Made by a program: the position numbers and the translations under genes. 64,000 nucleotides of DNA, from NCBI GenBank assembly GCA_965648905.1, contig CBFGIT010000003.1, positions 32,001 through 96,000 of the forward strand. The letters are read 5' to 3'. Of this stretch, positions 47,038-63,318 are shown in pieces. The notes under the pieces are model-generated. The model ran no database searches, was not told the origin of the DNA, and saw nothing but the letters and a program-made list of their open reading frames with translations. Every line of letters starts with the position of its first letter. Position 1 is the stretch's first letter. This DNA is from a candidate division WOR-3 bacterium. Lineage in GTDB: Bacteria; Hydrothermota; Tepidihabitantia; Tepidihabitantales; Tepidihabitantaceae.

Positions 47038-47262
47038 CAGTGATACCTCGACAGATGATAGACAGCGCCCAGGTCAATGCAAGCCGGACGAAACCGCTTG
47101 ACCGGTCCCCCGGTCATCACTCCTCGCCAACTCCTTTGCTTGACAGCACGTCTGGTTTCGGTTAAATCATGTCCAATTGACTGCTGCCGGTCCGGTCGGC
47201 TGTGGCCGCGCCGCCGGTCTGCTGGCTGGTCAACAGAGCAAGACCGAGCTTAAGGAGGTTTG

Positions 47263-48249
47263 ATGCACTCGACGTTTGATGAAGGTAAGCGGAAACGCAG
47301 TGGCAACAGAAGCCTGGCCTTAGTGCTGGTGCTGGCTGTTGTCGCCCTGGCAGTTGTGATTGTCGTGCTAGTAGCCAAGTCCGGTGACGGTCGGACGGTC
47401 AAAGTGCCGGAATTGAAAGGCAAGGACATGACTGCGGCAGCCGAGCTTGCCGCCAAGAGCAGTCTTGTTGTCAAAGAACAAGCTCGGGTGAAGCACGACA
47501 CTGTGCCGGTTGGATGCGTTGTTACCCAAGTTCCAGACCCAGGCACCAAGGTTGAGAAAAACGACACTATCTTGGTGACGGTCAGCCGGGGCCGGATGAG
47601 CAATGTCCCGGCTCTGGCCGGGTTCAAGAAAGACGATGCACCCGCCGAACTGGGCCGGGCTGGGCTGTCTTTGGGCAAGGTGAGCGTGGCCTCGTCGAAC
47701 GAGTTCCCGGCGGGCAGAATCATCAGCACGAGTCCGGAACCGGGAACTGAGGTCGAGCCAGACAGGCCGGTGGACATTGTTGTCAGTTCCGGGCCCAAGG
47801 TCGTGCCGCCACCGCAGGTTCCGACGTCGTTCCTCCGACCCGGGATGCGGCTTTCGTCAGTCGAGTTGAAAGAGCCGGACAGCCGCGGGTTCAACCTCGC
47901 AGTCGGGGTCGAGGTCGACAATCCCAATGCCATTGCCGGCGCAGTCAAAGGCTTCTACTACAAGCTCGAGGTTGACACCTTCTTCCTGGGCGACGGAAAG
48001 TATCTCTGCAACGTACCACTGAACCCGAACGAGAAGACGCAGGTATCGATTCTTGTCAACATCCGGCATGACCATATCGGTCCGGCCGCGGTCGCGCTCC
48101 TACGTCAGGGTGCGGTTGACTACCGCGTCCGCGGCTACTACGTCCTTGAGGCCCAGGGCGGCCGCTCATTCGAGTCCGTCTCCGCAAGCGGAACCTTCAA
48201 CCTTGCCGACAAACTCGGGCCGTATCTGAGGAGGATCTATGGCAACTGA
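47263..48249 (+). CDS. Membrane-anchored 2xPASTA + LEA_2 domain protein
   Basis: N-terminal TM, two VP.L.G...G.V/II.Q/T.P.PG..V...VS.G PASTA repeats, V.NPN LEA_2 motif. AAGGAGG RBS. Confidence 0.8.
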   Translation: MHSTFDEGKRKRSGNRSLALVLVLAVVALAVVIVVLVAKSGDGRTVKVPELKGKDMTAAAELAAKSSLVVKEQARVKHDTVPVGCVVTQVPDPGTKVEKNDTILVTVSRGRMSNVPALAGFKKDDAPAELGRAGLSLGKVSVASSNEFPAGRIISTSPEPGTEVEPDRPVDIVVSSGPKVVPPPQVPTSFLRPGMRLSSVELKEPDSRGFNLAVGVEVDNPNAIAGAVKGFYYKLEVDTFFLGDGKYLCNVPLNPNEKTQVSILVNIRHDHIGPAAVALLRQGAVDYRVRGYYVLEAQGGRSFESVSASGTFNLADKLGPYLRRIYGN

Positions 48250-48736
48250 AGATACTCGTTGCTCATCACTCATGACTCCTCACTCATCACTCATCTTCCT
48301 CTGCTCATTACTCATCGCTCTGTCTCTTTTCACCGGCTGTGCCACGCTGATGAGGGGTACAGCCGGTGCTATCCTGCTGCAGATGGCGCCGATCGGGCTC
48401 GAGCTCTTCGAGCTGCCGGCCAAGCTCGACCTGAAGGTCACCAACCCGTACCCGGTCAACGTCCGCATCTCCAACGTCAAGTACGAGGTGCTGATTGAGG
48501 GCAGGTCTATTGCCCGGGGCGAGCAGGCGAGTGAAACCATCGTACCCAAGGAAGGCTCGGTCGTGCTCTCAGTACCGCTGTCCATCAGTGCCGGTGAGGC
48601 GCTCTCCGGCATCAAGACCACACTGACCCGGCGCGGGGTCAAGTACCAGGTACGCGGCTCCTACACGGTTGCGTCTGAAACCGAGAGCGAGTTCCGGGTT
48701 TCGTCGCTTCTGAAACCGCTGCTCAGGCGAAAGTGA
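48239..48736 (+). CDS. LEA type 2 family lipoprotein
   Basis: Lipobox FTGC, LKVTNPYP, Y.V.I.G..IA.G, YQVRGS. Confidence 0.75.
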   Translation: MATEDTRCSSLMTPHSSLIFLCSLLIALSLFTGCATLMRGTAGAILLQMAPIGLELFELPAKLDLKVTNPYPVNVRISNVKYEVLIEGRSIARGEQASETIVPKEGSVVLSVPLSISAGEALSGIKTTLTRRGVKYQVRGSYTVASETESEFRVSSLLKPLLRRK

Positions 48737-48772
48737 AATGAGCATACCCGGGCGGGCGACAAGTTGTCGGCC

Positions 48773-50122
48773 ATGATTGGTTCAACTGTCGGGGACTACC
48801 GTGTCACCGAGAAGCTCGGGGCCGGTGGGTTCGGCGTTGTGTACAAGGCCGTGCACCGCATGTTGGAACAGGAAGTCGCCATCAAGACCCTGGACCCGAT
48901 TCTCACCCGCGACCCCAAGTTCCGCCAGCGGTTCTTTGACGAGGCCCGGACCCAGGCCCGGCTCAAGCACCCGAACATCGTCGTACTGCACAACTTCTTC
49001 GAGTACGACGGCCAGTACTTCATCGTGATGGAATACGTCGAGGGCGTGAATCTGGCCGGCGGCCAGTTCGCCCGCACCCTTTCCGACCTCATCAAGCCGG
49101 GCCCGATTCCGGAACCACGAATCATCGCCATTGCCCGCCAGATTCTCGACGGTGTAGGCTGTGCCCACGAACACGGCGTGCTCCACCGCGACATCAAGCC
49201 CCTGAACGTTCTCCTGACCGAGAAAGGGCTGGTCAAGATTGCCGACTTCGGCATCGCCAAGATTGTCGGTGGCGACACGAGCGTATCGGTCTCAGGCACG
49301 CGGGTCGGCACTGCGCCTTACATGTCGCCCGAACAGGTACTGAACGAACCGCTCACCCGCGCGTCAGACATCTACTCTCTCGGCATCACCCTGTATGAGA
49401 TGGCCGTAGGCGAAATTCCGTTCAAGGCAACCTCGACCGAGTCGATTGAGAAACAACACCTGTACGCGCCGCCGCCGCCCCTGCGCAAACGCAACCCTTG
49501 GATTTCCGAGAACTTCGAAGCCGTGGTCCTCAAGGCACTGGCCAAGAAGCCGGAGGAACGGTTCCAGACCTGCGAAGAGTTTTCTGCCGCTCTTGAGGGA
49601 AGAGGCACGGCACCGCAGCCGCGACCTGTGTCTCAACTCGAAGTCACCCGGCCCGAGCCGCCTGCGCCGCGCTCTGAGCTGAGTACTCCGCGCTCTTCGC
49701 CCGTCGATTCTCGCGACCCCGCATCCCGAAACCGCCGTCGGGCCGGGTTGTACATCGGACTGGCAGCAGCAGCTATTGCCGCAGCCGTGGGCATTGGCCT
49801 GCTGCTCAGGCCGAAGCAGGCGCCACTGCCAGAGTCGGGGCCGGCCCGCGTCGAGATGCCCGAGCTTGCCGGCATGGCACTTGCGGACGTGCAGGATGCA
49901 GTACGGCAAAGAGGACTGGTTCTGGTCGGGGTAGACAGCATTCTGACTGACGACGTTGCCAAAGGCAGGGTCGTTTCCTTTTCGCCGGGTGCCGGCACCA
50001 GTGTCATGCGGGGCGACTCAGTACGCATCACCTATTCCTGGGGTCGCAAGACCTGTCCGGACTGCAGCACCCCCCGAAACAAGACTGCCCGATTCTGCAC
50101 CAAGTGCGGGTACAAGTTCTAG
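48773..50122 (+). CDS. Hanks-type Ser/Thr kinase with TM, PASTA and C-terminal zinc ribbon
   Basis: GAGGFG, VAIK, HRDIKPLN, DFG, GT.PYMSPEQ, TM, PASTA, CPDC...FCTKCG. Confidence 0.92.
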   Translation: MIGSTVGDYRVTEKLGAGGFGVVYKAVHRMLEQEVAIKTLDPILTRDPKFRQRFFDEARTQARLKHPNIVVLHNFFEYDGQYFIVMEYVEGVNLAGGQFARTLSDLIKPGPIPEPRIIAIARQILDGVGCAHEHGVLHRDIKPLNVLLTEKGLVKIADFGIAKIVGGDTSVSVSGTRVGTAPYMSPEQVLNEPLTRASDIYSLGITLYEMAVGEIPFKATSTESIEKQHLYAPPPPLRKRNPWISENFEAVVLKALAKKPEERFQTCEEFSAALEGRGTAPQPRPVSQLEVTRPEPPAPRSELSTPRSSPVDSRDPASRNRRRAGLYIGLAAAAIAAAVGIGLLLRPKQAPLPESGPARVEMPELAGMALADVQDAVRQRGLVLVGVDSILTDDVAKGRVVSFSPGAGTSVMRGDSVRITYSWGRKTCPDCSTPRNKTARFCTKCGYKF

Positions 50123-50132
50123 CGATGAACCG

Positions 50133-50167
50133 CTGACGGCTCACAGCCGACAGCCTACAGCAATCAG
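50133..50167 (+). repeat. Heptamer array (CnnACAG-like x5)
   Basis: ctgacgg ctcacag ccgacag cctacag caatcag. Confidence 0.7.
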
Positions 50168-50227
50168 CGAATGCCCTCTCCCTCGACGGGCGCTGCGCCA
50201 GCTACGCGCCGGGTCGTCTGCTTCCTG

Positions 50228-50255
50228 TTGACACGGCACAGCAGTCAGCTACATT
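50228..50255 (+). promoter_or_regulatory. Promoter TTGACA-N16-TACATT, probably leaderless
   Basis: 6 nt separate the -10 box from the GTG at 50262. Confidence 0.55.
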
Positions 50256-50261
50256 TGACCG

Positions 50262-51776
50262 GTGCCGCAGACATATCCTGCTCCGCGCTCATCACCCGCT
50301 GCTCGTCGTTCATCCCTCGCTCATCGTCTTGTCCTCATCTCCCTTCACTCACTACTCATCACCCTCCTCCTTTTTTCGCTCGCCGCGAAGAAGTGCCCGC
50401 AGTGCGGCCGGGAGTACGACGACAGCCAGAACTTCTGCGCCGAGTGCGAGGATGCTGAAGGCAGGCCGGTGCGGCTCAGGGCCGTGCCGGCAAAGCCCAG
50501 GGAGAAACCGAAGGTGCAGGGAACCGTGATTCTGTCCGGCGACACCCTCGTTGTTTTGTCGACTCCGTCCGGTGCCGCAGTCAAGGTTGATGACCGGTAC
50601 GTGGGTAATACGCCGGACACTCTGGTCGGTCTGGGCCTCGAAGTGGGCGTGCACTCAATCCAACTGAGCGCACCCGGCCATACCGACTTCACGACCGAGC
50701 TCGAAGTCCGTCCGGTCGTACCGGTCGCAGGCCGGGTTCTTGCTGCTCCGGAAAGCCTGTTCTTCTTCTCCGAACCAGTCGGTGCCGAAGTGCTGCTCGA
50801 CGGCAGACCGGCAGGCAACACGCCGGACACTGCGGTCGGGCTCAAGCCGGGCAGGCACGTCGTGGTAATGAACCTGACCGGCTTCCTGCCCTGTACCACC
50901 GAGGTCGAGGTACCCTTGCCGGTCAAGGTCTTCCTCGGCCGAACCACTGCGGGCCACGAAGAGTGGCTCTGGCTCAAGGATTCGTCAGTAATGGTAAGAA
51001 TCCCGGCGGGCGAGTTTGAAATGGGCAGCGCAACGGCCGACGACCCACGTGACGAGCGACCCCTGCACCGGGTATACCTTGACGAGTACCTCATCGACAA
51101 GTACGAAGTCACCAACCACCAGTTCGAGAAGTTCGTGACCGAGACCGGATACAAGACCGAGGCTGAGAAAGCCGGCGTTGGCTGGTACTTTGTGACTCAG
51201 ACACCAAAATGGGAAGCAAGAAAAGGAATAAGCTGGCGGACTTTCTTCACGCCGGAAAGGAAAGACCATCCGGTCGTGCTCGTTTCGTGGAACGACGCCA
51301 GGGCCTACTGCGACTGGGCTGGCAAGAGACTGCCAACCGAGGCTGAGTGGGAAAAGGCAGCGCGTGGCACTGGTACGAGGACATTTCCCTGGGGTGAGGA
51401 ACCACCAGACGCAGGCGGTGTGAACCGGGTCAACTGGGGACGGGGCATGAGACGGGAAGACCTTCTCCGTGACGGCTACGAACATACTGCGCCGGTCGGT
51501 ACCTTCCCTGCCGGCTCGTCGCCTTATGGCTGCATGGACATGGCCGGCAATGCTCAGGAGTGGTGTAACGACTGGTACGACCCGGACTACTACAGCACCT
51601 CAAGAACCACAGGCCGGAATCCGGCCGGGCCGGACTCAGGCTCAGCCCGGGTCCTGCGCGGCGGCTCGGCCTACAGCCAGACAAACGAACTCCGCTGTGC
51701 CGACCGCTTCTTCTGCCCGCCTGCTGCTGCCTATGACATCATCGGGTTCCGCAGCGCAGCAGGCACTGCCAAGTGA
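50262..51776 (+). CDS. Zinc-ribbon + 2xPEGA + FGE-sulfatase (CLec) protein; not a current target of this DGR
   Basis: CPQC..FCAEC, two S.P.GA.V..D....G.TP PEGA motifs, IPAG.F.MG, KYEVTN, RLPTEAEWEKAARG, DMAGN, RVLRGG, GFR. Confidence 0.88.
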   Translation: MPQTYPAPRSSPAARRSSLAHRLVLISLHSLLITLLLFSLAAKKCPQCGREYDDSQNFCAECEDAEGRPVRLRAVPAKPREKPKVQGTVILSGDTLVVLSTPSGAAVKVDDRYVGNTPDTLVGLGLEVGVHSIQLSAPGHTDFTTELEVRPVVPVAGRVLAAPESLFFFSEPVGAEVLLDGRPAGNTPDTAVGLKPGRHVVVMNLTGFLPCTTEVEVPLPVKVFLGRTTAGHEEWLWLKDSSVMVRIPAGEFEMGSATADDPRDERPLHRVYLDEYLIDKYEVTNHQFEKFVTETGYKTEAEKAGVGWYFVTQTPKWEARKGISWRTFFTPERKDHPVVLVSWNDARAYCDWAGKRLPTEAEWEKAARGTGTRTFPWGEEPPDAGGVNRVNWGRGMRREDLLRDGYEHTAPVGTFPAGSSPYGCMDMAGNAQEWCNDWYDPDYYSTSRTTGRNPAGPDSGSARVLRGGSAYSQTNELRCADRFFCPPAAAYDIIGFRSAAGTAK

Positions 51777-52282
51777 AGTTCATTTCTCCCGCTCACGACC
51801 CATCGCCCTCGGCTCCTCGCTTCCCTCTCAGCACCCTCCATTCATTACTCATCACTCTCTTCTTCCTTTCCGGCTGCAATCTACTGCTCAAGCCGGCCGA
51901 GGTCGAGCTGGTCGGACTCGCGTTCTCGGGCGAGCGGGTGGTTGACTTAAGCGTCAGGATTCGCAACCCCAATGCAGTCGCAGTCCGGGCGTCAGAGGTG
52001 GAGTACACGGTAAACATCGGCCCAGAGGTCATCGGCCAAGGCAGGACATCTGAAGTCATCAAGCTTGGGCCCAGGGGCTCGGTGGTCACCCGGTTTCCGC
52101 TGAGCTATGACCTGGCAGCGATGGTGCGGGCCATACCGCAGCTTACCCGTGACACGGTTGTCTGCCAGGTGCAAGGCAGCTACCGGCTCGAAGCACTCCT
52201 GTTCCGCCCCAAGCTCAGGTTCGCAGTTGAACGGCGCGTGGCAGTGAAGCATGAGTTGCTCAACATCCTGAGAGGCAAATGA
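51773..52282 (+). CDS. LEA type 2 family lipoprotein
   Basis: Lipobox LSGC, VRIRNPN, EYTVNIG..IGQG. Confidence 0.75.
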   Translation: MKFISPAHDPSPSAPRFPLSTLHSLLITLFFLSGCNLLLKPAEVELVGLAFSGERVVDLSVRIRNPNAVAVRASEVEYTVNIGPEVIGQGRTSEVIKLGPRGSVVTRFPLSYDLAAMVRAIPQLTRDTVVCQVQGSYRLEALLFRPKLRFAVERRVAVKHELLNILRGK

Positions 52283-52295
52283 GACAGACAAGCAG

Positions 52296-54764
52296 ATGAC
52301 GAAGCTGAAAGTACTCATTGGCCCGAACCCGGGTCAGGAAATCGAAGTCACGGGTGCGGGCGTGCTGTTCGGCTATCGCGGTGAGAAGCTGAGGGCCGCG
52401 GCTGCGAACCGCGCTGCGTATGGCCTGCCCGAATCGGGCGAACTCAGGCTCGTTGAATACCAGGACCCAGGCCATACGTTGTCCGGCCTGCATGCCTGGG
52501 TCGGGTTCAACCGCCAGGGCGAGCTTGTGGTCCGGGACCTGGGCTCAAGGAACCACGTCTATGTCGGTTCAAGCGACGAGCCGGTCAAGGAGGCGCGGCT
52601 CAGGCACGGCGACAAAGTCAGGCTTTGTCGCGGCGGGGCAGTGACCTTCTCGGTCGAACTCGAAGAGCAGCCTGCCTGTGGCGCGACAATCCACGGCCCA
52701 GTGCCGTGCCCGGCGCCCGGGCAGCCTGCGGTCGTGAAGATGCCCGGCAACGTGCTCACCATCGGCCGGGCCCCGGACAACGACCTTGTGCTCGACTTTC
52801 CCCAGGTGTCGCGCCACCACTGCCGGATTGTGCGCCAGGACGACGGCACGCACATTCTTGACCTGAACTCGACCAACGGCACTTTTGTCAACGGCCATCG
52901 GGTGAAACAGGCCCGGCTTGCGGTCGGCGATGTCATCAACCTCGGTTCCTACGCGCTCTGCTTTGAGCAGGACCGGCACTTCAGCCAGGCCAGCCCAGCC
53001 GGTCGTGCCAGCCTTGTCTGCCACGACATCCGCAAAGCAGTCAAAGACAAGGTCATTATCCAGGGCATCTCGTTTGTCTCCTGTCCGAGCGAGTTCACCG
53101 GCCTTGTCGGTACCTCAGGCTCGGGCAAGACCACGCTCCTGAACGTCATCACCGGCTACGACAACACCGCGACCGGCCAGGTGCTGCTCAGCGGGGTTGA
53201 CCTGTACGAGCACTACGATGCTCTGCGCGGCAATATCGGCTACGTGCCGCAGGATGATATCATCCACCGGACTTTGACTGTGGAACAATCGCTCTACTAC
53301 ACTGCCCGGCTCAGACTGCCGGAAGACACGACCAAAGACGAAGTTCGGCGCCGGGTGGACAAGGTGATTGCCGACCTTGGTCTGGAAGGCTGTCGTCACG
53401 TGCGCATCGGTGACCCGGTGAAGCGCGGCATTTCCGGGGGCCAGCGCAAGCGGGTCAACCTTGCTCAGGAACTCATCACCGAGCCGGCCTGTCTTTTCCT
53501 GGACGAGCCTTTGTCCGGGCTCGACCCCTCGACCGCGGTTGAAGTTACCGAAGTCCTTGCCGACGCGGCCCGCAGCGGCCGGAGCGTCATTCTCACCACG
53601 CACAACGTCGAGTCGCCCCGCACCTTTGAGGTGCTCGGGCTGGTGCTCCTGATTCATGCCGGCCGCCTGGTCTACTATGGCCCGGCCCGCGAGGTCTTCG
53701 ACTACTTCGGATTCGGCCGCGACTACCCGCCCACTGTCCTTTCTCATCTCCAGGGCAAGTACTGTCCCAAATGCGACCGGGCGTTTGTCAAAGCCACAGG
53801 CCCGGTGCGCGACTGCCCGGGCTGCCACGAAGACCTCTACAAAGACCCGGAGTACTGGGAAACGAAGTTCCGCAATTCTGCCTGGTATGCAAAATACGTG
53901 GCCGGCCGAATGGAGGTGAGAAGCGTCAGCACCGGGGTCGGCCGCAAGGTCAAGCGCCAGCAGGCCAACGGACTGCGCCAGTGGTGGATACTGGTTCAGC
54001 GCTACTGGAAGATGAAACTCGCCGACACTGCCGGCACCGCGGTCCTGATGGCCCAGGCCCCGGTCATCGCCGTGCTCATCGGCCTGGTGTTCGGCAACAA
54101 AGGCTACCAGTACATGGGCGGGGTGCTGTTCATGATGGCACTCGCTGCCATCTGGTTCGGCGCAACCAACTCCTGCCGCGAAATCGTGGCCGAGCTTTCG
54201 GTCTACCGCCGCGAGCGGATGGTCAACTTGAAGATTGCGCCCTACATCCTTTCCAAGGCATTTGTCCTTTCGGTCTTTCTGCTGGTCCAGTGCCTGGTGC
54301 TTGCTACCATCGTCAAGCTGATGGTCAAACAACTGCCCGGCAGCATACCGGGTTTCACTGCGGTGCTCTTGCTCGGCGCGGTTGGCGGCTCAAGCATGGG
54401 CCTGCTCATCTCGGCCCTGCTCTCCTCGACCGAAGGCGCGATGGGTCTGGTCCCGGTCACACTCATACCTCAGGTCCTCTTTGCCGGCATGGTTGTGTCC
54501 TTGCCTCAGCTCGGCCCGATGAAGTTCCTGGCCAACTTCATGGTCTCGCGCTGGGTCCTTGATGCGCTCTCTCATTTCAGTACCAGGACCACCGGCGAGG
54601 TCATCACTGCTCTGGCCGCGACCGAAAAGGGCGGAGCAATCTTCTACTGGTTCGACGAGATGCCGAGCCTCGGCATGTCGCTCGACGTCCTCATCCTCCT
54701 TGTGCTCACCGTAACCTTCACCATCCTCACCGGCATCGCGCTCAAGGCGAAGGACATAGTTTGA
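52296..54764 (+). CDS. FHA-FHA-ABC ATPase-ABC2 permease fusion (Rv1747-like architecture)
   Basis: FHA motifs (GR.PDND, VSRHH, DLNSTNGTFVNG; first FHA degenerate). Walker A GTSGSGKT, ISGGQRKR, FLDEP. Multi-TM C-terminus with REIVAE...YRRER. Confidence 0.9.
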   Translation: MTKLKVLIGPNPGQEIEVTGAGVLFGYRGEKLRAAAANRAAYGLPESGELRLVEYQDPGHTLSGLHAWVGFNRQGELVVRDLGSRNHVYVGSSDEPVKEARLRHGDKVRLCRGGAVTFSVELEEQPACGATIHGPVPCPAPGQPAVVKMPGNVLTIGRAPDNDLVLDFPQVSRHHCRIVRQDDGTHILDLNSTNGTFVNGHRVKQARLAVGDVINLGSYALCFEQDRHFSQASPAGRASLVCHDIRKAVKDKVIIQGISFVSCPSEFTGLVGTSGSGKTTLLNVITGYDNTATGQVLLSGVDLYEHYDALRGNIGYVPQDDIIHRTLTVEQSLYYTARLRLPEDTTKDEVRRRVDKVIADLGLEGCRHVRIGDPVKRGISGGQRKRVNLAQELITEPACLFLDEPLSGLDPSTAVEVTEVLADAARSGRSVILTTHNVESPRTFEVLGLVLLIHAGRLVYYGPAREVFDYFGFGRDYPPTVLSHLQGKYCPKCDRAFVKATGPVRDCPGCHEDLYKDPEYWETKFRNSAWYAKYVAGRMEVRSVSTGVGRKVKRQQANGLRQWWILVQRYWKMKLADTAGTAVLMAQAPVIAVLIGLVFGNKGYQYMGGVLFMMALAAIWFGATNSCREIVAELSVYRRERMVNLKIAPYILSKAFVLSVFLLVQCLVLATIVKLMVKQLPGSIPGFTAVLLLGAVGGSSMGLLISALLSSTEGAMGLVPVTLIPQVLFAGMVVSLPQLGPMKFLANFMVSRWVLDALSHFSTRTTGEVITALAATEKGGAIFYWFDEMPSLGMSLDVLILLVLTVTFTILTGIALKAKDIV

Positions 54765-54799
54765 TGACCGCCACCAGCTCACAGCCGACAGCCCACAGT
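54765..54799 (+). repeat. Heptamer array, left arm of an inverted pair
   Basis: tgaccgc caccagc tcacagc cgacagc ccacagt. Confidence 0.75.
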
Positions 54800-54803
54800 T
54801 AGT

Positions 54804-55169
54804 ATGCGGGACATCAGAAGCTATGCCGTGTTCAAACTGGCAGACAGACTGGTGCTGGACGTGTACCGGGCCACCGCGCGATTCCCGAAAAGCGAGCTGT
54901 TTGGTCTGACATCCCAGATGCGGCGGGCAGCGTACTCGATTCCCATGAACCTGGCTGAAGGCGCGGCCCGGCGAAGCCAGAAGGAGTTCGCCCGAGCGGT
55001 AGACATTGCTGTCGGCTCTTGCGAAGAAGTGCGTTACCAGCTACATCTCGCGGCCGAACTCGGCTACCTGGAGCGTACGATTGCCCACAGAATCGATTCT
55101 GAGTATGAACAAGTCAAGAAGATGCTGTCGAAGCTCTTGCAGCGGCTGTCCGAGACCCCGGAGCTGTGA
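54804..55169 (+). CDS. Four-helix-bundle protein (23S rRNA-IVP family, Avd-like fold)
   Basis: VY..T..FPKSELFGLTSQMRRAA.SIP.N.AEG.AR, GS.EE..YQL. Confidence 0.92.
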   Translation: MRDIRSYAVFKLADRLVLDVYRATARFPKSELFGLTSQMRRAAYSIPMNLAEGAARRSQKEFARAVDIAVGSCEEVRYQLHLAAELGYLERTIAHRIDSEYEQVKKMLSKLLQRLSETPEL

Positions 55170-55190
55170 GCTGTCGGCTGTAGGCGGTCA
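55163..55190 (-). repeat. Heptamer array, right (inverted) arm
   Basis: Reverse complement reads tgaccgc ctacagc cgacagc tcacagc. Confidence 0.75.
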
Positions 55191-55193
55191 GCG

Positions 55194-57140
55194 ATGATTG
55201 GCTCCACCGTCGGCAACTACCGCCTCGTCGAGGAAATCGGCCGGGGCGGAATGGGCACGGTGTACAAGGCTGTGCACGTGCGCATCGCGGAACAGGTTGT
55301 TGCCGTGAAGCACCTTGCGCCCCTGCTCATCTTCGGCGACTCAGGCGCGGCCCAGCGGGCCAAAGAAGAAGCCAGCTCTCAGGCCCGGCTCAAAGACCAC
55401 CCCAACATCGTCTCGCTCTACGACTACGTCGAGACCGGCGAGGGGCTGTTCCTGATTATGGAGTACGTCCGCGGAGTCCAGGGCATGCGCAACATGGCCG
55501 AGCTGGTCCGGCGCTGCGGGCCTCTGCCTCTGGACGAGCTGAAGCGACTGTTCGGCCAGGTTCTCTCCGCGGTCGGGTTCGCGCACAGACAGGGCATCAT
55601 CCACCGCGACCTGAAGCCCCTGAATATCATGCTCTCCGAGTTTGGGGCCAAGGTCGGCGACTTCGGTATTGCGCGGATTGTGTCCGGCGACACCAGCGTC
55701 TCGGTCTCGGGCCACCGCGTCGGCACTCCGGCCTACATGTCGCCGGAGCAGGTGCTGTACAAGAAACTGACTCGGGCGACCGACATCTACTCGCTTGGCT
55801 GCACCCTGTATGAACTGGCAACCGGCAGGCTGCCGTTCAAGGCTTCGGAAACCTCGTCCTTCTTCGAGGCGCACTTACAGGACCCGCCAATTCCGCCGCG
55901 CTCGGTCAACCCGGCGCTTCCTGAGCGGCTTGAACAGGTCATCCTCAAAGCCATGGCCAAGAAACCGCAAGACCGGTTCCAGACCTGCGAAGAGTTCGCC
56001 GCGGCGCTCCAGAGAGTGGGTGTGGCTTCGCAACCGCGGCCCGAACCGGCTGAACCACTACCAGACAAGACCAGACCCGAGCCGGAGCCGACCCCGAAGC
56101 CCCAGCCCGGACCCCTGCCTGAGTTGCAAGACGAAGCGCGAAGGCCCAGGCGCGGCCGCCGGGCGGGGTGGCTGATTGGCCTGAGCCTTGCCGGCGTGGT
56201 CGCGATTGCCGTGACTGCGGCCTTGGTCCGCGCTCCTCGCTCCTCGCCCAGCGTTCAGCATTCCTATTCCTCCCCGGGCCGTGAGCTGTCAGCGGAAAGC
56301 GGTTGGCGTTCTCTGGGCCGCAACGCTCAGGGCTATGACGAAATCCTCTGGCTCAAGGACTCGTCGGTGATGATACGAATCCCGGCCGGTGAACTCTGGA
56401 TGGGCAGTGCTGAGGGCGAAGGTGCCAGCGACGAGCGGCCGCAACACAAGGTCTACTTGAGCGAGTACTACATCGACAAGTACGAGGTGACGAACGAGCA
56501 GTTCGAGCGGTTTGTGAAAGCGACCGGCTACCAGACCGATGCCGAGCGGCTCGGGTCAGGCTATGTCGATGACAAGGGCTCCTCGAAATTGATAGACAAG
56601 AAAGGCGTGAGCTGGCGCACTTACTATGGCTACGCCACGAGAAACCACCCGGTTGTGCTCGTGTCGTGGAACGATGCCAAGGCCTATTGTGACTGGGCGG
56701 GCAAGCGGCTGCCGACCGAGGCCGAATGGGAGAAAGCAGCGCGTGGCACTGACGCGCGCAAGTATCCCTGGGGCAACAGCGAACCCGACGGAAGTCGGTG
56801 CAATTACGCAGACAAGAACACCGACTTCTTCTGGCGCGATGCCAACGATGGATACGCTCAGACTGCGCCGGTCGGCACGTATCCTGCTGGTGCTTCGCCC
56901 TATGGCTGCATGGACATGGCAGGCAATGTCTGGGAATGGTGCAATGACTGGCGTGACGGAGACTACTGCAGCACAAGCCCGAGCAACAACCCGGAAGGGC
57001 CGTCGTCTGGCTCGTTCCGCGTCCTCCGTGGCGGTTCCTGGGCCCTCGATGCCAGGTTCCTGCGCTGCGCTCGTCGGGCCGGGGGCGTTCCATCGCTCCG
57101 GACCTACTTTCTGGGCTTCCGTTGTTCCTTGCGTCAGTAG
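55194..57140 (+). CDS. Receptor Ser/Thr kinase-TM-FGE/CLec protein; DGR target 1
   Basis: GRGGMG, VAVK, HRDLKPLN, DFG, GTPAYMSPEQ. RRPRRGRR then TM WLIGLSLAGVVAIAVTAALV. FGE domain. C-terminal VR. Confidence 0.95.
   Translation: MIGSTVGNYRLVEEIGRGGMGTVYKAVHVRIAEQVVAVKHLAPLLIFGDSGAAQRAKEEASSQARLKDHPNIVSLYDYVETGEGLFLIMEYVRGVQGMRNMAELVRRCGPLPLDELKRLFGQVLSAVGFAHRQGIIHRDLKPLNIMLSEFGAKVGDFGIARIVSGDTSVSVSGHRVGTPAYMSPEQVLYKKLTRATDIYSLGCTLYELATGRLPFKASETSSFFEAHLQDPPIPPRSVNPALPERLEQVILKAMAKKPQDRFQTCEEFAAALQRVGVASQPRPEPAEPLPDKTRPEPEPTPKPQPGPLPELQDEARRPRRGRRAGWLIGLSLAGVVAIAVTAALVRAPRSSPSVQHSYSSPGRELSAESGWRSLGRNAQGYDEILWLKDSSVMIRIPAGELWMGSAEGEGASDERPQHKVYLSEYYIDKYEVTNEQFERFVKATGYQTDAERLGSGYVDDKGSSKLIDKKGVSWRTYYGYATRNHPVVLVSWNDAKAYCDWAGKRLPTEAEWEKAARGTDARKYPWGNSEPDGSRCNYADKNTDFFWRDANDGYAQTAPVGTYPAGASPYGCMDMAGNVWEWCNDWRDGDYCSTSPSNNPEGPSSGSFRVLRGGSWALDARFLRCARRAGGVPSLRTYFLGFRCSLRQ
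57008..57132 (+). repeat. DGR variable region VR1
   Basis: 125 bp, colinear with TR. 24 mismatches, all at TR adenines. Confidence 0.97.
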
Positions 57141-57212
57141 TCTTATCTGTGAATCTGGTAATCTGGGAATCTGAATATCTGGTCTTCCTACAGCGGCGGC
57201 GAAGCGGCCGCT
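57133..57212 (+). promoter_or_regulatory. DGR target-recognition region 1: IMH end, 5xATCTG array and GAA-loop hairpin
   Basis: 57110..57189 is identical to 60401..60480. Hairpin AGCGGCGGC-GAA-GCGGCCGCT (57192..57212) has one mismatch. Confidence 0.75.
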
Positions 57213-57225
57213 CGCGCGCATTTCT

Positions 57226-57576
57226 ATGGCAAAGACTGAGTTCCTGGTGATTCAGCGGAGCTACGATTTCACGAAATGGCTGCTTCAGCACACGCAGAAG
57301 TTTCCTAAGTCGCTTCGCTTCTCACTGGCGGTCAGAATGGAGAACCGTATGCTGGAGGCGCTGGAGTCAGCAGTGGTTGCCAACATGAAGCGGGACAAGC
57401 TCACGTTGCTGGCGCGGGCTGATGAGGCATTGGAGTCGCTTCGGATACTGGTGCGGCTCAGCTTTGAGATGAAGGTGCTGGCCGCCAACTCCTACGAGTA
57501 TGCGGCCAGGGAACTGGATGAAATTGGCAAACTTCTGGGCGGCTGGATACGGCAGCAAAGCCGGCCGACCGGTTGA
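57226..57576 (+). CDS. avd: DGR accessory variability determinant
   Basis: YD...WL.....KFPKS.RF.L..R, L..LR.LVRL, YE.....L.EIGKLLGGW. Immediately precedes TR. Confidence 0.92.
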   Translation: MAKTEFLVIQRSYDFTKWLLQHTQKFPKSLRFSLAVRMENRMLEALESAVVANMKRDKLTLLARADEALESLRILVRLSFEMKVLAANSYEYAARELDEIGKLLGGWIRQQSRPTG

Positions 57577-57591
57577 GGGCACAGGCAGAAA

Positions 57592-57716
57592 TGGCTCGTA
57601 CCGCGTCAACCGTGGCGGTTCCTGGAACAACGATGCCAGGAACCTGCGCTGCGCTAATCGGAACAGGAACGAACCATCGAACCGGAACAACAATCTGGGC
57701 TTCCGTTGTTCCTTGC
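57592..57716 (+). ncRNA. DGR template repeat (TR)
   Basis: Reads GSYRVNRGGSWNNDARNLRCANRNRNEPSNRNNNLGFRCSL with 11 AAY codons and 29 adenines. Lies between avd and RT. Confidence 0.97.
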
Positions 57717-57746
57717 AGCAGTTGCAGCATGACCGCCGAACTGATG

Positions 57747-57768
57747 CCGCCGGTTCACGGACCGGCGG
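57747..57768 (+). other. Hairpin in the TR 3' spacer (DGR RNA structure)
   Basis: CCGCCGGT-TCACGG-ACCGGCGG, perfect 8-bp stem. Confidence 0.6.
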
Positions 57769-58046
57769 ACTGCGGCGAGCGGCTACTGAAGTGCCTGTTT
57801 CCTGAGTCTGCGCCACTCTTCCCGCCGTCTTTGCGAGGGCTGCGGATTGAGGCGCGGTGTAGACCAAAATGGAGGAGTCCGGGTGCCGGCAATTGAGCGG
57901 TCTTCGTCAGCCAAAGTCGGCACCCGGGCGCTGACGCCGGCGACCCCTCATTACATGAGGGACACTGGGGAAGCAAGCAGGGCGTTCAGGGTGACTCGGC
58001 GGTGTTGTGTTCTCGAGCCGCCGGCTAGGGGTCGTCGGGCCGGGCA

Positions 58047-58319
58047 CCGGCGACTCCTCGGAGACCCTCGGAGTGACAGCCCCTCTGTCATTCCGAGGAA
58101 CGAAGCGACGAGGAATCGCCGGGCTGCAGAGCAACTCGGAGTGACAGCCCTTCTGTCATTCCGAGGAACGAAGTGACGAGGAATCGCCGAGCTGCAGGAC
58201 AACCATGAAACAGTATTACGTCCCCCCTTCCGCCTTCCGCCGACCGGCGACTCCTCGGAGAACCTCGGAGTGACAGCCCCTCTGTCATTCCGAGGAACGA
58301 AGTGACGAGGAATCGCCGG
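58047..58319. repeat. Three REP-like palindromic repeats (58047..58122, 58135..58189, 58244..58319)
   Basis: Core CTCGGAGTGACAG-CCCYT-CTGTCATTCCGAG followed by GAACGAAGYGACGAGGAATCGCCG. Copies 1 and 3 add an outer CCGGCGACTCCTCG arm. Confidence 0.9.
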
Positions 58320-58322
58320 CCG

Positions 58323-59372
58323 ATGCCGCCCAGTCTTAGCGGGTTGTTCGACCGACTGACGAGCTTCGACAACCTGCTGGCCGCGTTCCTGAAGGCCCGA
58401 CGCGGTAAGCGCCTCAGACCGGCGGTCGCTGCGTTCGAGTTGGACCTTGAACACGAGCTTCTCCGGCTGCAGGACGAACTGACTGCCGGCACCTGGCGGC
58501 CCGGCAGCTACCACAACTTCTACGTCCACGACCAGAAGCGCCGGCTGGTCACCGCAGCATTTTTCCGCGACCGGGTCGTGCACCATGCTCTGCTGAACGT
58601 ACTGGAGCCGGTGTTCGAGCCTTCGTTTCTCTACGATTCGTATGCCTGTCGCCGCGGCAAAGGCCAGCATCGAGCGATTTGCCGCTACCAGCGCTGGTCG
58701 CGTGGACACCAGTACGTCCTGCGCGGCGACATACTCAAGTTCTACCCGAGCGTTGATCACGCGATTCTCCTGCAGTTGCTGAGCCGGAAGATCCGAGACC
58801 GAAGAGTCCTTGCCCTGTGCACGATGATTGTCCGGAGTGGGACCGGAATCCTGGACTCGGAGTATCGGATTACCTGGTTTCCGGGTGATGACCTGTTCTC
58901 GCCCCTGGGGCGACCGCGCGGCATTCCCATCGGCAACCTGACCAGCCAGTTCTTTGGCAATGTCTACCTGAATGAGCTGGACCACTTCGTGAAAGAGCAA
59001 CTGTGCTGCCGGTGCTACCTACGGTACATGGACGATGTCGCGGTGTTCGGGGATGACCCGAGGTCACTGGCGCTGGCAAAGCGGCGTATCAGCGAGTTTC
59101 TGGCCGGCCTGCGGCTGACCCTGCGCCCGGAGAAGACGCGCGTCTGGCAGACCGGCGACGGAGCCGAATTCCTCGGGTTCCGCGTATTCCCCGGGCATCG
59201 GCTGGTGCGTAAGGCCACGGCCTATCGGTACGGCCGGCACCTGAGACGGTTGAGTCGCAGGCAGGTGCGTGCATCTCTGACTGCCTGGTTCGGGCACGCC
59301 TGCCACGCCGATTCGTTCCGACTGAACGCCGAGCTTCTGAGACGGGCCGGGCTGCTCGCCGTGTGGTGTTGA
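58323..59372 (+). CDS. DGR reverse transcriptase
   Basis: NL..AF.KARRGK, KRRL, FRDRVVHHAL, SYACR.GKG.H, DI.KFYPS.DH, GIPIGNLTSQFFGNVYL, YLRYMDD, FLGF. No maturase or endonuclease domain. Confidence 0.97.
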   Translation: MPPSLSGLFDRLTSFDNLLAAFLKARRGKRLRPAVAAFELDLEHELLRLQDELTAGTWRPGSYHNFYVHDQKRRLVTAAFFRDRVVHHALLNVLEPVFEPSFLYDSYACRRGKGQHRAICRYQRWSRGHQYVLRGDILKFYPSVDHAILLQLLSRKIRDRRVLALCTMIVRSGTGILDSEYRITWFPGDDLFSPLGRPRGIPIGNLTSQFFGNVYLNELDHFVKEQLCCRCYLRYMDDVAVFGDDPRSLALAKRRISEFLAGLRLTLRPEKTRVWQTGDGAEFLGFRVFPGHRLVRKATAYRYGRHLRRLSRRQVRASLTAWFGHACHADSFRLNAELLRRAGLLAVWC

Positions 59373-59396
59373 CAAGCCTGTCCTGCTTGCTAGATT
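59369..59396 (+). promoter_or_regulatory. Promoter TTGACA-N16-TAGATT overlapping the RT stop, probably leaderless
   Basis: TG precedes the -10 box. 6 nt separate the -10 box from the ATG at 59403. Confidence 0.6.
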
Positions 59397-59402
59397 TACC
59401 GC

Positions 59403-60431
59403 ATGCAAAGGCAGACGAGGAGCGGGTTCCGCGTTTCGCGTTTGGTGCTCATCGTTCTCCTCGGTCTTTTCGTCCTCCTCTCCCTCGCCGCGAAGAAGTG
59501 CCCCAAGTGCGGCAAGGAGTACGACGACGACCAGAACTTCTGCGCGATGTGCGAGGACTCCGCGGGCGGGCCGGTCCGGCTCAAGCCGGTCGAGAAGCCC
59601 AGACCCAAGCCCAAGGCGCCAAGAGCCGAAAGCTCACAGCCGCAAGCTCCGGCCGGGACACAGTATGTCTCGCGGGGCCGCAACGCTCAGGGCTATGACG
59701 AAATCCTCTGGCTCAAGGACTCGTCGGTGATGATACGAATCCCGGCCGGGGTCTTCACGATGGGCTCAGATGACGGAGGGAGCGGCGAGAAGCCGGTGCA
59801 CCAGGTCTATCTCGATGAGTACTACATCGACAAGTACGAGGTGACGAACCGCCAGTACAAGAAGTTCTGCGACGCAACCGGCCGGAGTTATCCGCCTGAC
59901 CCGGACTTCCTTGCCATGGCTAATTACATCACGAACTACCCATCTTACCCGGTTGTCAATGTCTCATGGGAAGACGCCAAGGCCTACTGTAACTGGGCCG
60001 GCAAGCGGTTGCCGACCGAAGCCGAATGGGAGAAAGCAGCCAGAGGAACAGATGCGAGGAAGTATCCGTGGGGCAATTCGGAGCCGAATGCCGGCGGAAT
60101 CTACCGGGCGAACTACGACCCCGGGAGCTACACCGAAGACGGGTATGCCCGGACAGCCCCAGTCGGCTCCTTCGAGCGCGGCGCGAGTCACTACGGCTGT
60201 CTGGACATGGCAGGCAACGTCTGGGAATGGTGCAATGACTGGTATGACGAGAACCACTACAACGCAAGCCCAAGAAACAACCCGCAAGGCCCTTTGTCTG
60301 GCTCGTACCGCGTGCTCCGTGGCGGTTCCTGGGGCATCGATGCCAGGTACCTGCGCTGCGCTTATCGGTTCAGGCTCGATCCTTCGTACCGGAACTACTA
60401 TCTGGGCTTCCGTTGTTCCTTGCGTCAGTAG
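59403..60431 (+). CDS. Signal/TM + zinc-ribbon + FGE/CLec protein; DGR target 2
   Basis: Hydrophobic N-terminus, CPKC..FCAMC, FGE motifs, C-terminal VR. Confidence 0.95.
   Translation: MQRQTRSGFRVSRLVLIVLLGLFVLLSLAAKKCPKCGKEYDDDQNFCAMCEDSAGGPVRLKPVEKPRPKPKAPRAESSQPQAPAGTQYVSRGRNAQGYDEILWLKDSSVMIRIPAGVFTMGSDDGGSGEKPVHQVYLDEYYIDKYEVTNRQYKKFCDATGRSYPPDPDFLAMANYITNYPSYPVVNVSWEDAKAYCNWAGKRLPTEAEWEKAARGTDARKYPWGNSEPNAGGIYRANYDPGSYTEDGYARTAPVGSFERGASHYGCLDMAGNVWEWCNDWYDENHYNASPRNNPQGPLSGSYRVLRGGSWGIDARYLRCAYRFRLDPSYRNYYLGFRCSLRQ
60299..60423 (+). repeat. DGR variable region VR2
   Basis: 125 bp. 16 mismatches at TR adenines plus one synonymous C>G near the 5' end. Confidence 0.97.
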
Positions 60432-60503
60432 TCTTATCTGTGAATCTGGTAATCTGGGAATCTGAATATCTGGTCTTCCTCTAGCGGCGGCGAAGCCGCC
60501 GCT
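60424..60503 (+). promoter_or_regulatory. DGR target-recognition region 2: IMH end, 5xATCTG array and perfect hairpin
   Basis: AGCGGCGGC-GAA-GCCGCCGCT at 60483..60503. Confidence 0.78.
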
Positions 60504-60538
60504 CGGCCGCAAAAAAGGGGGCAGCCTGCAGCCGACTG

Positions 60539-60594
60539 CGTGCAGCCAACAGCCGACAGCTTACAGCCATCAGCCGCCAGCGTACAGTTATCAG
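60539..60594 (+). repeat. Heptamer array (NNNNCAG x8)
   Basis: cgtgcag ccaacag ccgacag cttacag ccatcag ccgccag cgtacag ttatcag. Confidence 0.75.
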
Positions 60595-60969
60595 CCTGTG
60601 GCTGAATGAGTTAGACGGCTTCGCTCGGAACGGACCAGTAAGCCTCGAACTGACGATGACTTGCCTGAGACCTGGGTCAGGGAGGGGCCGTACCCTACGC
60701 CGTAACTACGTCTCCGACTCAAAGTGCGGTTGAGCTGGCGCTTGCCTTTGTCTTACCCGGTCTTATGCCGCGCGATGTTGCCGAGGCCTTACTTCACATG
60801 TTGTCTTGGGTGCTGTCTCGACCGATGCCGCGGGCAGAAGCTCAAGCAGCAAAACAGGCAGCAGCTCGTGCAGGTAGTCAGGCAGTTACGTCAGCGGGTC
60901 TCTGAGCGTCGATGTCGGCGACTTGGCCGGCGTCAGCCCGATAATCACGCCCGGTTTCATGCAGGTATT

Positions 60970-63318
60970 CTACCGGGCGAAAACGAGCTTCGTAACGGTC
61001 GTTGATGCCGACCGGGTGCGGAGAAAGTAGACGCCCGGGGCAAGTCGGCCCAAGTCGTTTGAGCCGGACGAAAGGTCCACGACCTTGCGGCCGTCTGCGG
61101 CCAGGAGTGATGAGCCGTGTTCGGTGACAAAGAGAAGCCGACGTGCGACGACAGTTCTCGCTCCAGGCGTCGGCCCTTGCCGACGGTTCTCGGCCAGCGC
61201 AGCCGCGGTCGTGTCGCGGATAACCGTGATGCTCGAACCCGTGCTGTTTGCGACGTAGACTCGGCCGCGGTTCTGGTTGTGCGCCAGACCAATCGGGCCG
61301 TAGCCGACCCCAAGCGTCTGTTCCACGGTGTTGGTAGCGCAGTTGATGACCGTGACGTTGTCGCTTAGGGAGTTGGCGCAGTAGACCCGGTTGTGCGGGC
61401 GGTCGTAAAGTAGTGCGTTCGGGCCGTCGCCGACCGAAGCCGCAGCGACGACTGCGAGCGCGGCCACGTCTACAACCGAGACCTGGTCGCTGCCGTTGTC
61501 GGCGACGTAGACCAGAGGCCCGGGGCCGCTTGTGAGCGCGCTTGGCATCAGGCCGACCGCAACCGTGCCGAGCACGCTGTCACCGGCCGCGTCGATCACC
61601 GAGACGCTGGCGCCACCGTTGTTGGCACACGCAATTCGGCCGGTCGGCTGGTTCAGGCAGAGGGCATCCGGTCGAATGCCGGTAGTGATGGTCGTGCGCG
61701 GCTGGTGCGTCAGGGCGTCAATGACGGTGACGGTATTGGAAGAGGTGTTGGCGCAGTAGACCTTGTCGCCATCCGGCCCGACAAGGAGTGCCCGCGGACG
61801 TGAGCCGACCGGAACCGTGGCGATGACCGAGTCAGTCCGGCAGTCTACGACCGAGACTGTACCCGAAGTGTTGTTGGCGCAGTAGACCGCGCGTTCAGTC
61901 TCATTGGCGACGAGGGCGGTTGGTTTGCCGCCGACCGGAATACGGGCAACGACTGTGTCGGCCGACCCGGCGATGACCGTGACTTGGTTGTCGGTTGCGC
62001 AGGCGGCATAGACCTTATCCATGCCGAGCGCGAGCGCGGTCGGATTGACCCCGGTGCGGACCGTCGCAAGGACACGGTTGTCTTCGCCGCTGATGACCGA
62101 AACCGTGCTGCTCCACTGGTTGGCCGAGTAGACTTTGTTCTGTTCGGCGTGCCAGACGACCGCTCCGGGCCAGCATCCGAGCGGGACCGTCGAGCGCACC
62201 GCGCTGGTCGCCGCATCAATGACTGTCACGTCGCAACTGTGCCAGTTGACGCAGTAGACCCGACCCGCACCTGGGTCACAGGCAATCGTCCAGGGATAGT
62301 CGCCGGCCAGAACCGTGGCGATGACCGAATCGGTTCTGGTGTCAATCACCGACACACTGCCCGCACTCTGATTGGCACAGAAGACCCGGCTCGTGGTCGA
62401 ATCAAAGCACAGGGCGACCGGTCGGTCCCCAACCCGCACCGTGGCGAGCACGCTGTCGCCGAGCGCGTCAATCACGGTTACATCGTCGGTGTTCATGTTG
62501 GCGCAGTAGACCTTGCCGGCCGGGCCGGGAATGAGTGCCCGGGGCGTGTTGCCGACCGGTAGAGTCGCGACCACGGTGTTGGTCAGCGCGTTGATGACCG
62601 TGACCGAGTTGTCGAGCGCATTGGCACAGTAGACCCGGTCGCCGGCCGCGTCACAGCAGAGCAGCCGCGGGGTCAGGCCGACCGGAATCGTGGCCAGGAC
62701 CGTATCGGCTCTGGCGTCCACTACCGTTACCGTGTTGTCTGTCTCGTTCGCGACATATATCCGATTCAGCCTGCTGTTGCCGGCGACAAAGCAGGGTCGA
62801 GCGCCGGTCCGGACCGTGCCGAGCAAGGTGTTGGTCACGCCGTCAATCACGCTCAGACGGCCCGCAGTGTACATCGCGCAGTAGACTTTGTTCCCGGTCG
62901 CGTTGACGGCCAGAGCACAGGCCGACCAGCCGATACTGATATCCGCAAGGACCTCAAAGGTCGCGCCGTCAATCACGGTGAGCAGGTTGTCGTAGTAGTT
63001 GGCGCAGTAGACCTTGTTGGCGGCCGGGTTGTAAGCCGCGTCAATCGTGAAGTAGCCGGAGCGCACCAAGGCGAGCTTGTCGCCCCGGATGCCGTCAAAG
63101 ACGATGGTGCGCTCGCCTTCCTGGCCACTGACAAAGACCGCATTGTTGGCGGTATTGACCGCGATTGCCCGCGGACTCAGGAGCCCGCCGAACGAGTCGG
63201 GCAACGTGATGGTTGTCTCAAGGAACTGGGCCGACCCGACCGAGACCGCAAACCACCACGCGGCCAACCGAACGGTGACCACCAAAGCTTCAGGAGCGGA
63301 CCGGCACCAGGGCATCAC
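60970..63318 (-). CDS. YVTN/YncE beta-propeller repeat surface protein with T9SS-like tail
   Basis: About 16 repeats of KVYCAN....V.VID.....V.A...VG..P. Tail DGRKV..L..G.ND...LAPGVYF. Confidence 0.88.
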   Translation of the reverse strand: MMPWCRSAPEALVVTVRLAAWWFAVSVGSAQFLETTITLPDSFGGLLSPRAIAVNTANNAVFVSGQEGERTIVFDGIRGDKLALVRSGYFTIDAAYNPAANKVYCANYYDNLLTVIDGATFEVLADISIGWSACALAVNATGNKVYCAMYTAGRLSVIDGVTNTLLGTVRTGARPCFVAGNSRLNRIYVANETDNTVTVVDARADTVLATIPVGLTPRLLCCDAAGDRVYCANALDNSVTVINALTNTVVATLPVGNTPRALIPGPAGKVYCANMNTDDVTVIDALGDSVLATVRVGDRPVALCFDSTTSRVFCANQSAGSVSVIDTRTDSVIATVLAGDYPWTIACDPGAGRVYCVNWHSCDVTVIDAATSAVRSTVPLGCWPGAVVWHAEQNKVYSANQWSSTVSVISGEDNRVLATVRTGVNPTALALGMDKVYAACATDNQVTVIAGSADTVVARIPVGGKPTALVANETERAVYCANNTSGTVSVVDCRTDSVIATVPVGSRPRALLVGPDGDKVYCANTSSNTVTVIDALTHQPRTTITTGIRPDALCLNQPTGRIACANNGGASVSVIDAAGDSVLGTVAVGLMPSALTSGPGPLVYVADNGSDQVSVVDVAALAVVAAASVGDGPNALLYDRPHNRVYCANSLSDNVTVINCATNTVEQTLGVGYGPIGLAHNQNRGRVYVANSTGSSITVIRDTTAAALAENRRQGPTPGARTVVARRLLFVTEHGSSLLAADGRKVVDLSSGSNDLGRLAPGVYFLRTRSASTTVTKLVFAR

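Follow-up and report, generated by a model that had tools for sequence, protein, structure and literature searches.

A repeated motif downstream of the VRs of Avd-containing DGRs: a candidate part of the target site

Introduction

The target site described for the DGR of phage BPP-1 consists of a (GC)14 segment, a 21-bp IMH and a hairpin with a GRNA loop (Guo et al., 2011, PMC3240598), and in that system it is the 21-bp IMH that sets the directionality of homing (PMC3240598). A hairpin, in the form of inverted repeats, was predicted in just 34 % of the DGRs considered by Wu et al. (2018, PMC5758913). How the cDNA is routed to the VR while the TR is spared is poorly understood, even after determination of a cryo-EM structure (10.1101/2023.10.23.563531). 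The DGR literature that we searched, mostly as freely accessible text and in its main text only, including PMC3240598, PMC5758913, PMC12875486, PMC4372165, PMC4891356, PMC10907252 with its preprint, PMC7517822 and 10.1101/2023.10.23.563531, gave IMH sequences and hairpins, and no motif array downstream of the VR was described there. The present study concerns such an array in a stretch of 64,000 nucleotides from a candidate division WOR-3 bacterium (hereafter the window), and its counterparts in related loci.

Results

The DGR of the window and its post-VR cassette

The window contains a complete DGR with the order target-avd-TR-RT-target (Table 1), in itself an ordinary one, and RT relatives at 43–55 % identity also possess TR/VR pairs. 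In both targets the FGE-sulfatase domain ends no more than four residues from the C-terminus; target 1 has in addition a predicted membrane segment, and a sigma-70-like site lies ahead of target 2 (59369–59396). Differences from the TR fall at TR adenines in 24 of 24 cases for VR1, in 16 of 17 for VR2 and in 19 of 19 for the VR of a third target on contig C9 (see below). The TR corresponds to both VRs up to 57716 and diverges from 57717, the equivalent point on the VR1 side being 57133, and the constant end of VR1 that precedes this boundary may by analogy be the counterpart of the (GC)14 segment of BPP-1. The 3′ flank of the TR holds neither an array nor a hairpin of the GAA-loop type. A 77-nt palindromic repeat is present three times at 58046–58319; the copies separate the TR spacer from the RT and overlap the predicted RT start. 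The region 47260–57140, upstream of the DGR, encodes a PASTA protein, a second Ser/Thr kinase, a non-diversified FGE-PEGA protein, LEA_2-type proteins and an FHA-ABC transporter, and this signalling cluster suggests that the variable kinase–CLec protein feeds a phosphorylation pathway. A stand-alone four-helix-bundle gene (54804–55169) is situated between inverted heptamer arms at 54764–55193.

Table 1. Features of the DGR in the window (positions are those of the whole stretch)
Feature	Position	Strand	Evidence or remark
Target gene 1: Ser/Thr kinase and FGE-sulfatase (CLec-type) domain containing VR1	55194..57140	+	Pfam Pkinase 8e-52, FGE-sulfatase 1e-69
VR1	57008..57132	+	24 A-only differences from TR
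VR1 constant 3′ end, TR-identical	57110–57132	+	Sequence comparison
Target-specific linker with stop codon, unlike TR 3′ end (IMH versus IMH* boundary)	57133..57144	+	Sequence comparison
Array 1: five ATCTG units, 8-nt period	57145..57181	+	Starts 57145, 57153, 57161, 57169, 57177
Hairpin 1: G+C-rich stem, one G-G mismatch, GAA loop	57192..57212	+	−9.4 kcal/mol as DNA
avd, 116 aa	57226..57576	+	NF033474 111 bits, cut-off 80
Template repeat (TR)	57592..57716	+	Sequence comparison
DGR reverse transcriptase (RT), open frame, YMDD	58302..59372	+	RVT_1 5e-19
Target gene 2: zinc ribbon and FGE-sulfatase domain	59403..60431	+	Domain search
VR2	60299..60423	+	Differs from TR at 16 A and at one non-A position (one C)
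Array 2, same sequence as array 1	60436..60472	+	ATCTG at 60436, 60444, 60452, 60460, 60468
Hairpin 2: perfect 9-bp stem, GAA loop	60483..60503	+	−13.0 kcal/mol as DNA

A preliminary description of this DNA had reported an 80-bp identity following the two VRs, five ATCTG steps of 8 nt, two GAA hairpins (the first mismatched, the second perfect) and divergence of the TR, and all of its coordinates hold. The maximal exact match is 57110–57189 with 60401–60480 (80 bp), ending 49 nt past the stop codons, and the cassette is, as had been proposed, a target-specific 3′ element composed of an IMH-like end, an array and a hairpin. The target with the mismatched hairpin, target 1, has the highest number of adenine changes (24), the other two targets of this DGR having 16 and 19. 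Of the listed sequencing runs that contain this genome, none was of RNA, and the one DNA run, in which its share was small, gave no reads over the VRs or the cassette. Array 1 has a G+C content of 38 % against 62 % for the genome. Three or more ATCTG motifs at period 8 occur at only three sites in the 3.0-Mb genome, each directly 3′ of a VR, which argues that the array is not a product of chance. Fixed-period arrays of any 5-mer in at least four copies number 71 in the genome, 63 having period 7 and four having period 8, and these last four are the three DGR targets and one microsatellite. No terminator-like site was found on the plus strand between 56900 and 60700, and neither hairpin is followed by a sense-strand T run, unlike an intrinsic terminator. 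A search of 54000–61000 with the Rfam covariance models gave no matches up to E 1, and the idea that the array pairs with the avd-TR-spacer RNA was rejected, the longest complementarity (6 nt) being at the level of shuffled sequence.

Remote targets and a second DGR

Searching the genome with the cassette, a check proposed in the preliminary description, located a remote target on contig C9, an FGE gene with the same cassette and with a VR that shows 19 A-only differences from the window TR, so that the array is present at three of three targets of the window DGR and offers a means of finding remote DGR targets. The C9 array has two differences, both outside the TCTG core. In this locus (G000:C9:85919–87670, minus strand; L001) target 3 and its cassette are followed by a fragment of a decayed TR and by the final ~30 codons of an RT; the locus is a collapsed DGR. 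The C9 VR differs from the local TR relic at positions other than A, but from the window TR at A only, which suggests that diversification takes place in trans.

Contig C51 carries a second DGR, with an Avd that is 37 % identical to that of the window and has Asn66 and Tyr54, and with three targets (minus strand; VR ends near 12540, 5520 and 1125). All three VRs are followed on their 3′ side by a different, T-rich 8-nt array, its periodicity being judged by eye. Two of the three targets have a GAA-loop hairpin, which at the third is replaced by another palindromic element. With the window RT as tblastn query, no RT for the C51 DGR was found in the assembly, in which this contig ends ~550 nt past the TR. 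Inspection by eye detected no array at three non-target FGE genes of the genome, and in the locus set described below the array was present at none of three FGE genes without a VR (one of them the same gene of the window) versus 35 of 45 targets.

Conservation of the array

Simple co-duplication had been named in the preliminary description as the meaning of an array that was dispensable or confined to these targets. Ahead of the VR, targets 1 and 2 share only 24 of 47 four-fold silent sites, which rules out co-duplication of the whole genes, and despite this distance they are identical over the 57 nt past the part templated by the TR. A smaller distance separates targets 1 and 3 (58 of 72 silent sites shared), so copying of gene ends does occur. 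In a locus from another genus of the same family (L026), the four-fold sites shared with the window amount to 63 of 140 for RT and 22 of 44 for Avd, and 35 of 37 array bases are kept at two of its three targets, the two differences falling outside the TCTG core; the third array, which is truncated, keeps 22 of 37. Retention of the array at near-saturated RT silent sites, taken with the divergence of targets 1 and 2, argues against simple co-duplication. The inter-motif spacers are conserved in L026 as well, beyond the needs of a model of CTG plus any spacer. One diversified target of this locus (L026:12337 onward; 23 A changes) has an array of only three units and a 21-nt tandem duplication in the place of the hairpin. 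In G001, which belongs to the same genus and whose RT is 72 % identical, the RT gene sits where a contig ends and no TR match was obtained; no TR/VR pair was found in G069 or G247.

Distribution of arrays among DGRs

The locus set comprised 220 loci found with the window RT, with TR/VR pairs in 158, and a chain was defined as at least four identical 3-mers, 7–9 nt apart, within the first 80 nt of a flank. Among metagenome relatives, chains followed the VR at 34 of 52 loci, followed the TR at 2 of 44 and preceded the VR at 0 of 51, where shuffles predict 1.5; post-VR chains were found at 13 of 67 viral loci, 2 of 7 close genome loci and 1 of 85 distant genome loci. Far from being atypical, as had first been thought, the array is therefore the rule in the Avd-containing group, and since arrays follow most VRs of such DGRs, the absence from homologous targets that the preliminary description had considered was not observed. 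Loci with an Avd match had chains in 41 of 65 cases and those without in 5 of 82, Avd having been searched on the RT strand only; two of these five (L178 and L189) later matched Avd. These counts overstate the support, because kin among the loci are not independent.

At Asp66 loci in which avd does not adjoin the VR, a CTG chain was present after the VR in 33 of 43, after the TR in 2 of 43 and before avd in 1 of 43, the last of which rules out a translational operator of avd. The array is confined to the sense strand, opposite-strand CAG chains being found in 0 of 127 cases, and the first CTG lies a median of 12–13 nt past the end of TR/VR homology (IQR 7–18 nt). A match between five repeats and the pentameric Avd, as first suggested, fails as a fixed rule, the 126 CTG arrays having three units in 12 cases, four in 67 (the mode), five in 36 and six to eight in 11. 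An exact 8-nt period was likewise rejected as a general rule: spacing was 8 throughout in just 8 of the 126, 7 throughout in 21 and mixed, mostly 7 and 8, in 97. The array is more constant across relatives than the hairpin, a G+C-rich example of which was found after 34 of 53 cellular and 18 of 51 viral arrays, against 13 % in shuffles, by a detector that misses mismatched stems. The commonest loop downstream of the arrays is the C-GAA-G triloop (11 of 52), a stable DNA loop.

Viral scans with the window Avd or the four-helix-bundle protein as sole query gave no matches. Five phage DGRs with Glu54 in Avd (L382, L393, L419, L420 and L584) have two CTG units after the VR and then T-rich TTG/TTAG units, possibly a further variant of the code considered below. 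Two loci (L201 and L284) have an in-frame sorting tail 3′ of the VR, which we take from its motif to be PEP-CTERM-like; any array there would fall outside the 100 nt of flank that were analysed, and both were scored as misses or misclassified.

Covariation of Avd residue 66 with motif type

The Avd columns that track array type are occupied in the window by Asp66, Asn53 and Met54. Column 66 was the best predictor of motif type, with an accuracy of 0.93 (58 classified of 69 loci) against 0.88 for the best RT columns. The prediction that Asp goes with CTG and Asn with T-rich motifs was set before new sets were analysed; the definition of T-rich was revised after the data had been seen, the CTG half being left unchanged. 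Loci in which no VR could be detected (118 of the 303 with Avd in the first set, 13 in the second) and duplicate Avd sequences were excluded. In the first new set, the 81 Asp loci comprised 60 with CTG, 4 with other motifs and 17 unclassified, and the 22 non-Asp loci 1, 11 and 10, respectively; in the second, the corresponding figures were 29, 0 and 15 for 44 Asp loci and 0, 4 and 4 for 8 non-Asp loci. Overall, CTG chains were found at 125 of 171 Asp66 loci and 1 of 51 with other residues, at least two CTG within the first 60 nt at 158 of 171 and 7 of 51, and 42 of 171 and 27 of 51, respectively, were unclassified. The counter-examples are L455, which combines Asn66 with a CTG array, and four Asp loci with CT-pyrimidine chains.

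On a tree built without the columns in question, residue 66 changed about seven times. An independent-pairs test of the code, with 5–7 pairs, gave means of 2.6 concordant, 0 opposite and 2.4 without difference and was not significant (p 0.25), and a reversal to Asp in the lineage of the window, hinted at by a fast tree, was unsupported (AU p 0.43). Among 83 stand-alone four-helix-bundle genes the association of Asp with CTG did not reappear clearly (2 of 4 genes with Asp versus 15 of 79 others). The correlation between residue 66 and motif is real, whereas direct reading of the motif by Avd would be a further and unproven step.

Discussion

The array probably belongs to the poorly understood signal that directs where a DGR writes, and its occurrence after most VRs of Avd-containing DGRs makes it a concrete candidate for the missing targeting signal. 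That it serves homing seems to us quite likely from the comparisons made here. With slightly better than even confidence we further propose that the array functions within the DGR target site, where it would extend the target-specific half of the IMH by several units and be read single-stranded by the homing complex. The assignment to the target site rests on its location after VRs and not TRs, its restriction to the sense strand, its fairly constant spacing from the point where TR/VR identity stops, and its conservation. A strand-specific motif whose spacing wobbles between 7 and 8 nt, out of step with the double helix, would fit a single strand laid on an oligomer better than duplex DNA. The sense strand might be exposed through replication, transcription or extrusion of the hairpin, and the array would then hold the complex of RT, Avd and RNA/cDNA beside the GC-rich segment where the cDNA pairs; the TR, having no array, would be spared. 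It is the sense strand with which the cDNA pairs. In Escherichia coli, homing is favoured if this strand serves as template for lagging-strand synthesis (PMC12875486), but in the BPP-1 phage the orientation of the target is immaterial (PMC3240598), which counts against the step involving a replication strand.

The most speculative step concerns the reader, which might be the wide end of the ring formed by Avd, with at most one motif per subunit and no requirement for all five, residue 66 together with residues 53–54 helping to set CTG versus CT-pyrimidine. We put sequence-specific reading of the array by Avd at somewhat short of an even chance. A link between array and Avd is plausible through co-occurrence and residue covariation, not through repeat number. 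The model of a homologue (L195) has helices at 6–23, 27–53, 58–80 and 86–110 and matches bAvd (TM 0.88); with the topology taken from these helix limits, residues 53, 54 and 66 and the C-terminus of Avd would all be located together at one end of the helical bundle. The cryo-EM complex has the spacer RNA running over the narrow end of Avd and a C-terminal fusion at the wide end (10.1101/2023.10.23.563531), yet bAvd has been reported to bind DNA and RNA with no detectable sequence specificity (PMC5758913), which counts against reading by Avd. More doubtful again, and rather unlikely in our estimation, is the fuller proposal that Avd is a sequence-specific address reader and not a non-specific scaffold, its free wide face binding 3-base motifs that form a single-stranded series downstream of the VR, residues 66 and 53–54 setting the motif and the 21-bp IMH of BPP-1 representing a minimal array. 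If this were true, the two DGRs in one cell (Asp and CTG on C3 and C9, Asn and T-rich on C51) would each be confined to its own set of targets, and an exchange of array and Avd could give a target a new address.

The array might instead work in the target mRNA as a binding site in the 3′ UTR for a protein, either Avd or one of the host (Rho, for example), that would govern termination or mRNA stability or recruit the RT complex to a gene under transcription. Ring proteins that read spaced RNA motifs are known (TRAP and Rho), the array is strictly on the sense strand, and stand-alone Avd homologues have period-7 arrays on a flank at 22 of 26 loci. Flipped-out RNA bases inserted between Avd protomers, seen in the cryo-EM complex (10.1101/2023.10.23.563531), would also suit this reading. 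We nevertheless consider it decidedly unlikely, as the array keeps its place relative to the point where TR/VR identity stops, it is not an operator of avd and neither hairpin has a terminator-like T run on the sense strand. The commonest loop, moreover, is one that is stable as DNA.

Two readings dispense with a protein reader or with function. An A+T-richer spacer could ease opening of the target and extrusion of the hairpin, its period arising by slippage, in keeping with the low G+C content of the array, the abundance of short-period arrays in the genome and the importance of hairpin distance in BPP-1 (PMC3240598). Such a spacer would not have to keep motif identity and strand across distant lineages, to persist where no hairpin was detected or to be rare in loci without an Avd match, and we regard it as quite improbable. 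The array could also be a passive passenger, the relic of a repeat arm from an ancestral four-helix-bundle cassette that was duplicated together with VR-bearing gene ends. Avd is a four-helix-bundle homologue, and recent copying of gene ends, as between targets 1 and 3, could explain the identity of the three paralogous cassettes; but the conservation in L026 exceeds what a passenger would be expected to show, the array is retained after VRs while its sequence turns over between lineages, and arms upstream of stand-alone genes are rich in purines, in contrast to the array upstream of avd, which has its motif in the opposite sense. This last reading appears very improbable.

The cassette can be compared with the target site of BPP-1 (PMC3240598). 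The order of parts is alike, with a TR-identical GC-rich end, target-specific sequence and a GC-rich hairpin that are absent after the TR. In the window the TR-identical segment is GC-rich and not GC-only, and VR-specific sequence begins at 57133, as an IMH of the BPP-1 type requires. The hairpin lies 59 nt past the point where TR identity ends, against 25 in BPP-1 and 4–34 bp from the VR end in the phage set of Guo et al. (PMC3240598); the 9-bp stem fits the 7–10 bp GC-rich stem of that type, but the 3-nt GAA loop, in place of a 4-nt GRNA loop, and the 59-nt gap do not. The gap holds five motif units, where the published account of BPP-1 describes no repeat units (PMC3240598). The 21-bp IMH of BPP-1 nevertheless contains CTG, CTG and TTG at 10- and 7-nt spacing, the middle CTG is missing from the IMH* and column 66 of bAvd is occupied by Asp; seen post hoc, this IMH could be regarded as a two- or three-unit array.

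Cellular DGRs with FGE/CLec targets, namely clade 5 of Dore et al. (2024, PMC10907252), those of cyanobacteria (PMC7517822) and architecture B1 of Wu et al. (2018, PMC5758913), share the target-avd-TR-RT order, and likewise have C-terminal FGE/CLec VRs and kinase-fused and dispersed targets, the likeness to clade 5 being one of features and not of tree placement. In the published accounts of these systems cis features are merely supposed to activate remote targets, and no motif array is mentioned (PMC10907252, PMC7517822, PMC5758913). The archaeal DUSEL4 DGRs (Paul et al., 2015, PMC4372165) have a GRA triloop hairpin 3′ of the VR, as in the window, but it is situated inside the target gene, and an array is not part of their description (PMC4372165). 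Stand-alone four-helix-bundle genes (PF05635) share the Avd fold and have a motif of ~7-nt period beside the gene; theirs is set in two inverted arms with a strict period of 7, in contrast to the single post-VR array of DGRs with a period of 7–8. The cassette of the window was ruled out as a heptamer-flanked four-helix-bundle cassette, consisting as it does of one array of period 8 that goes with the VR instead of avd. The array may, even so, connect Avd with these unexplained repeat-flanked four-helix-bundle genes.
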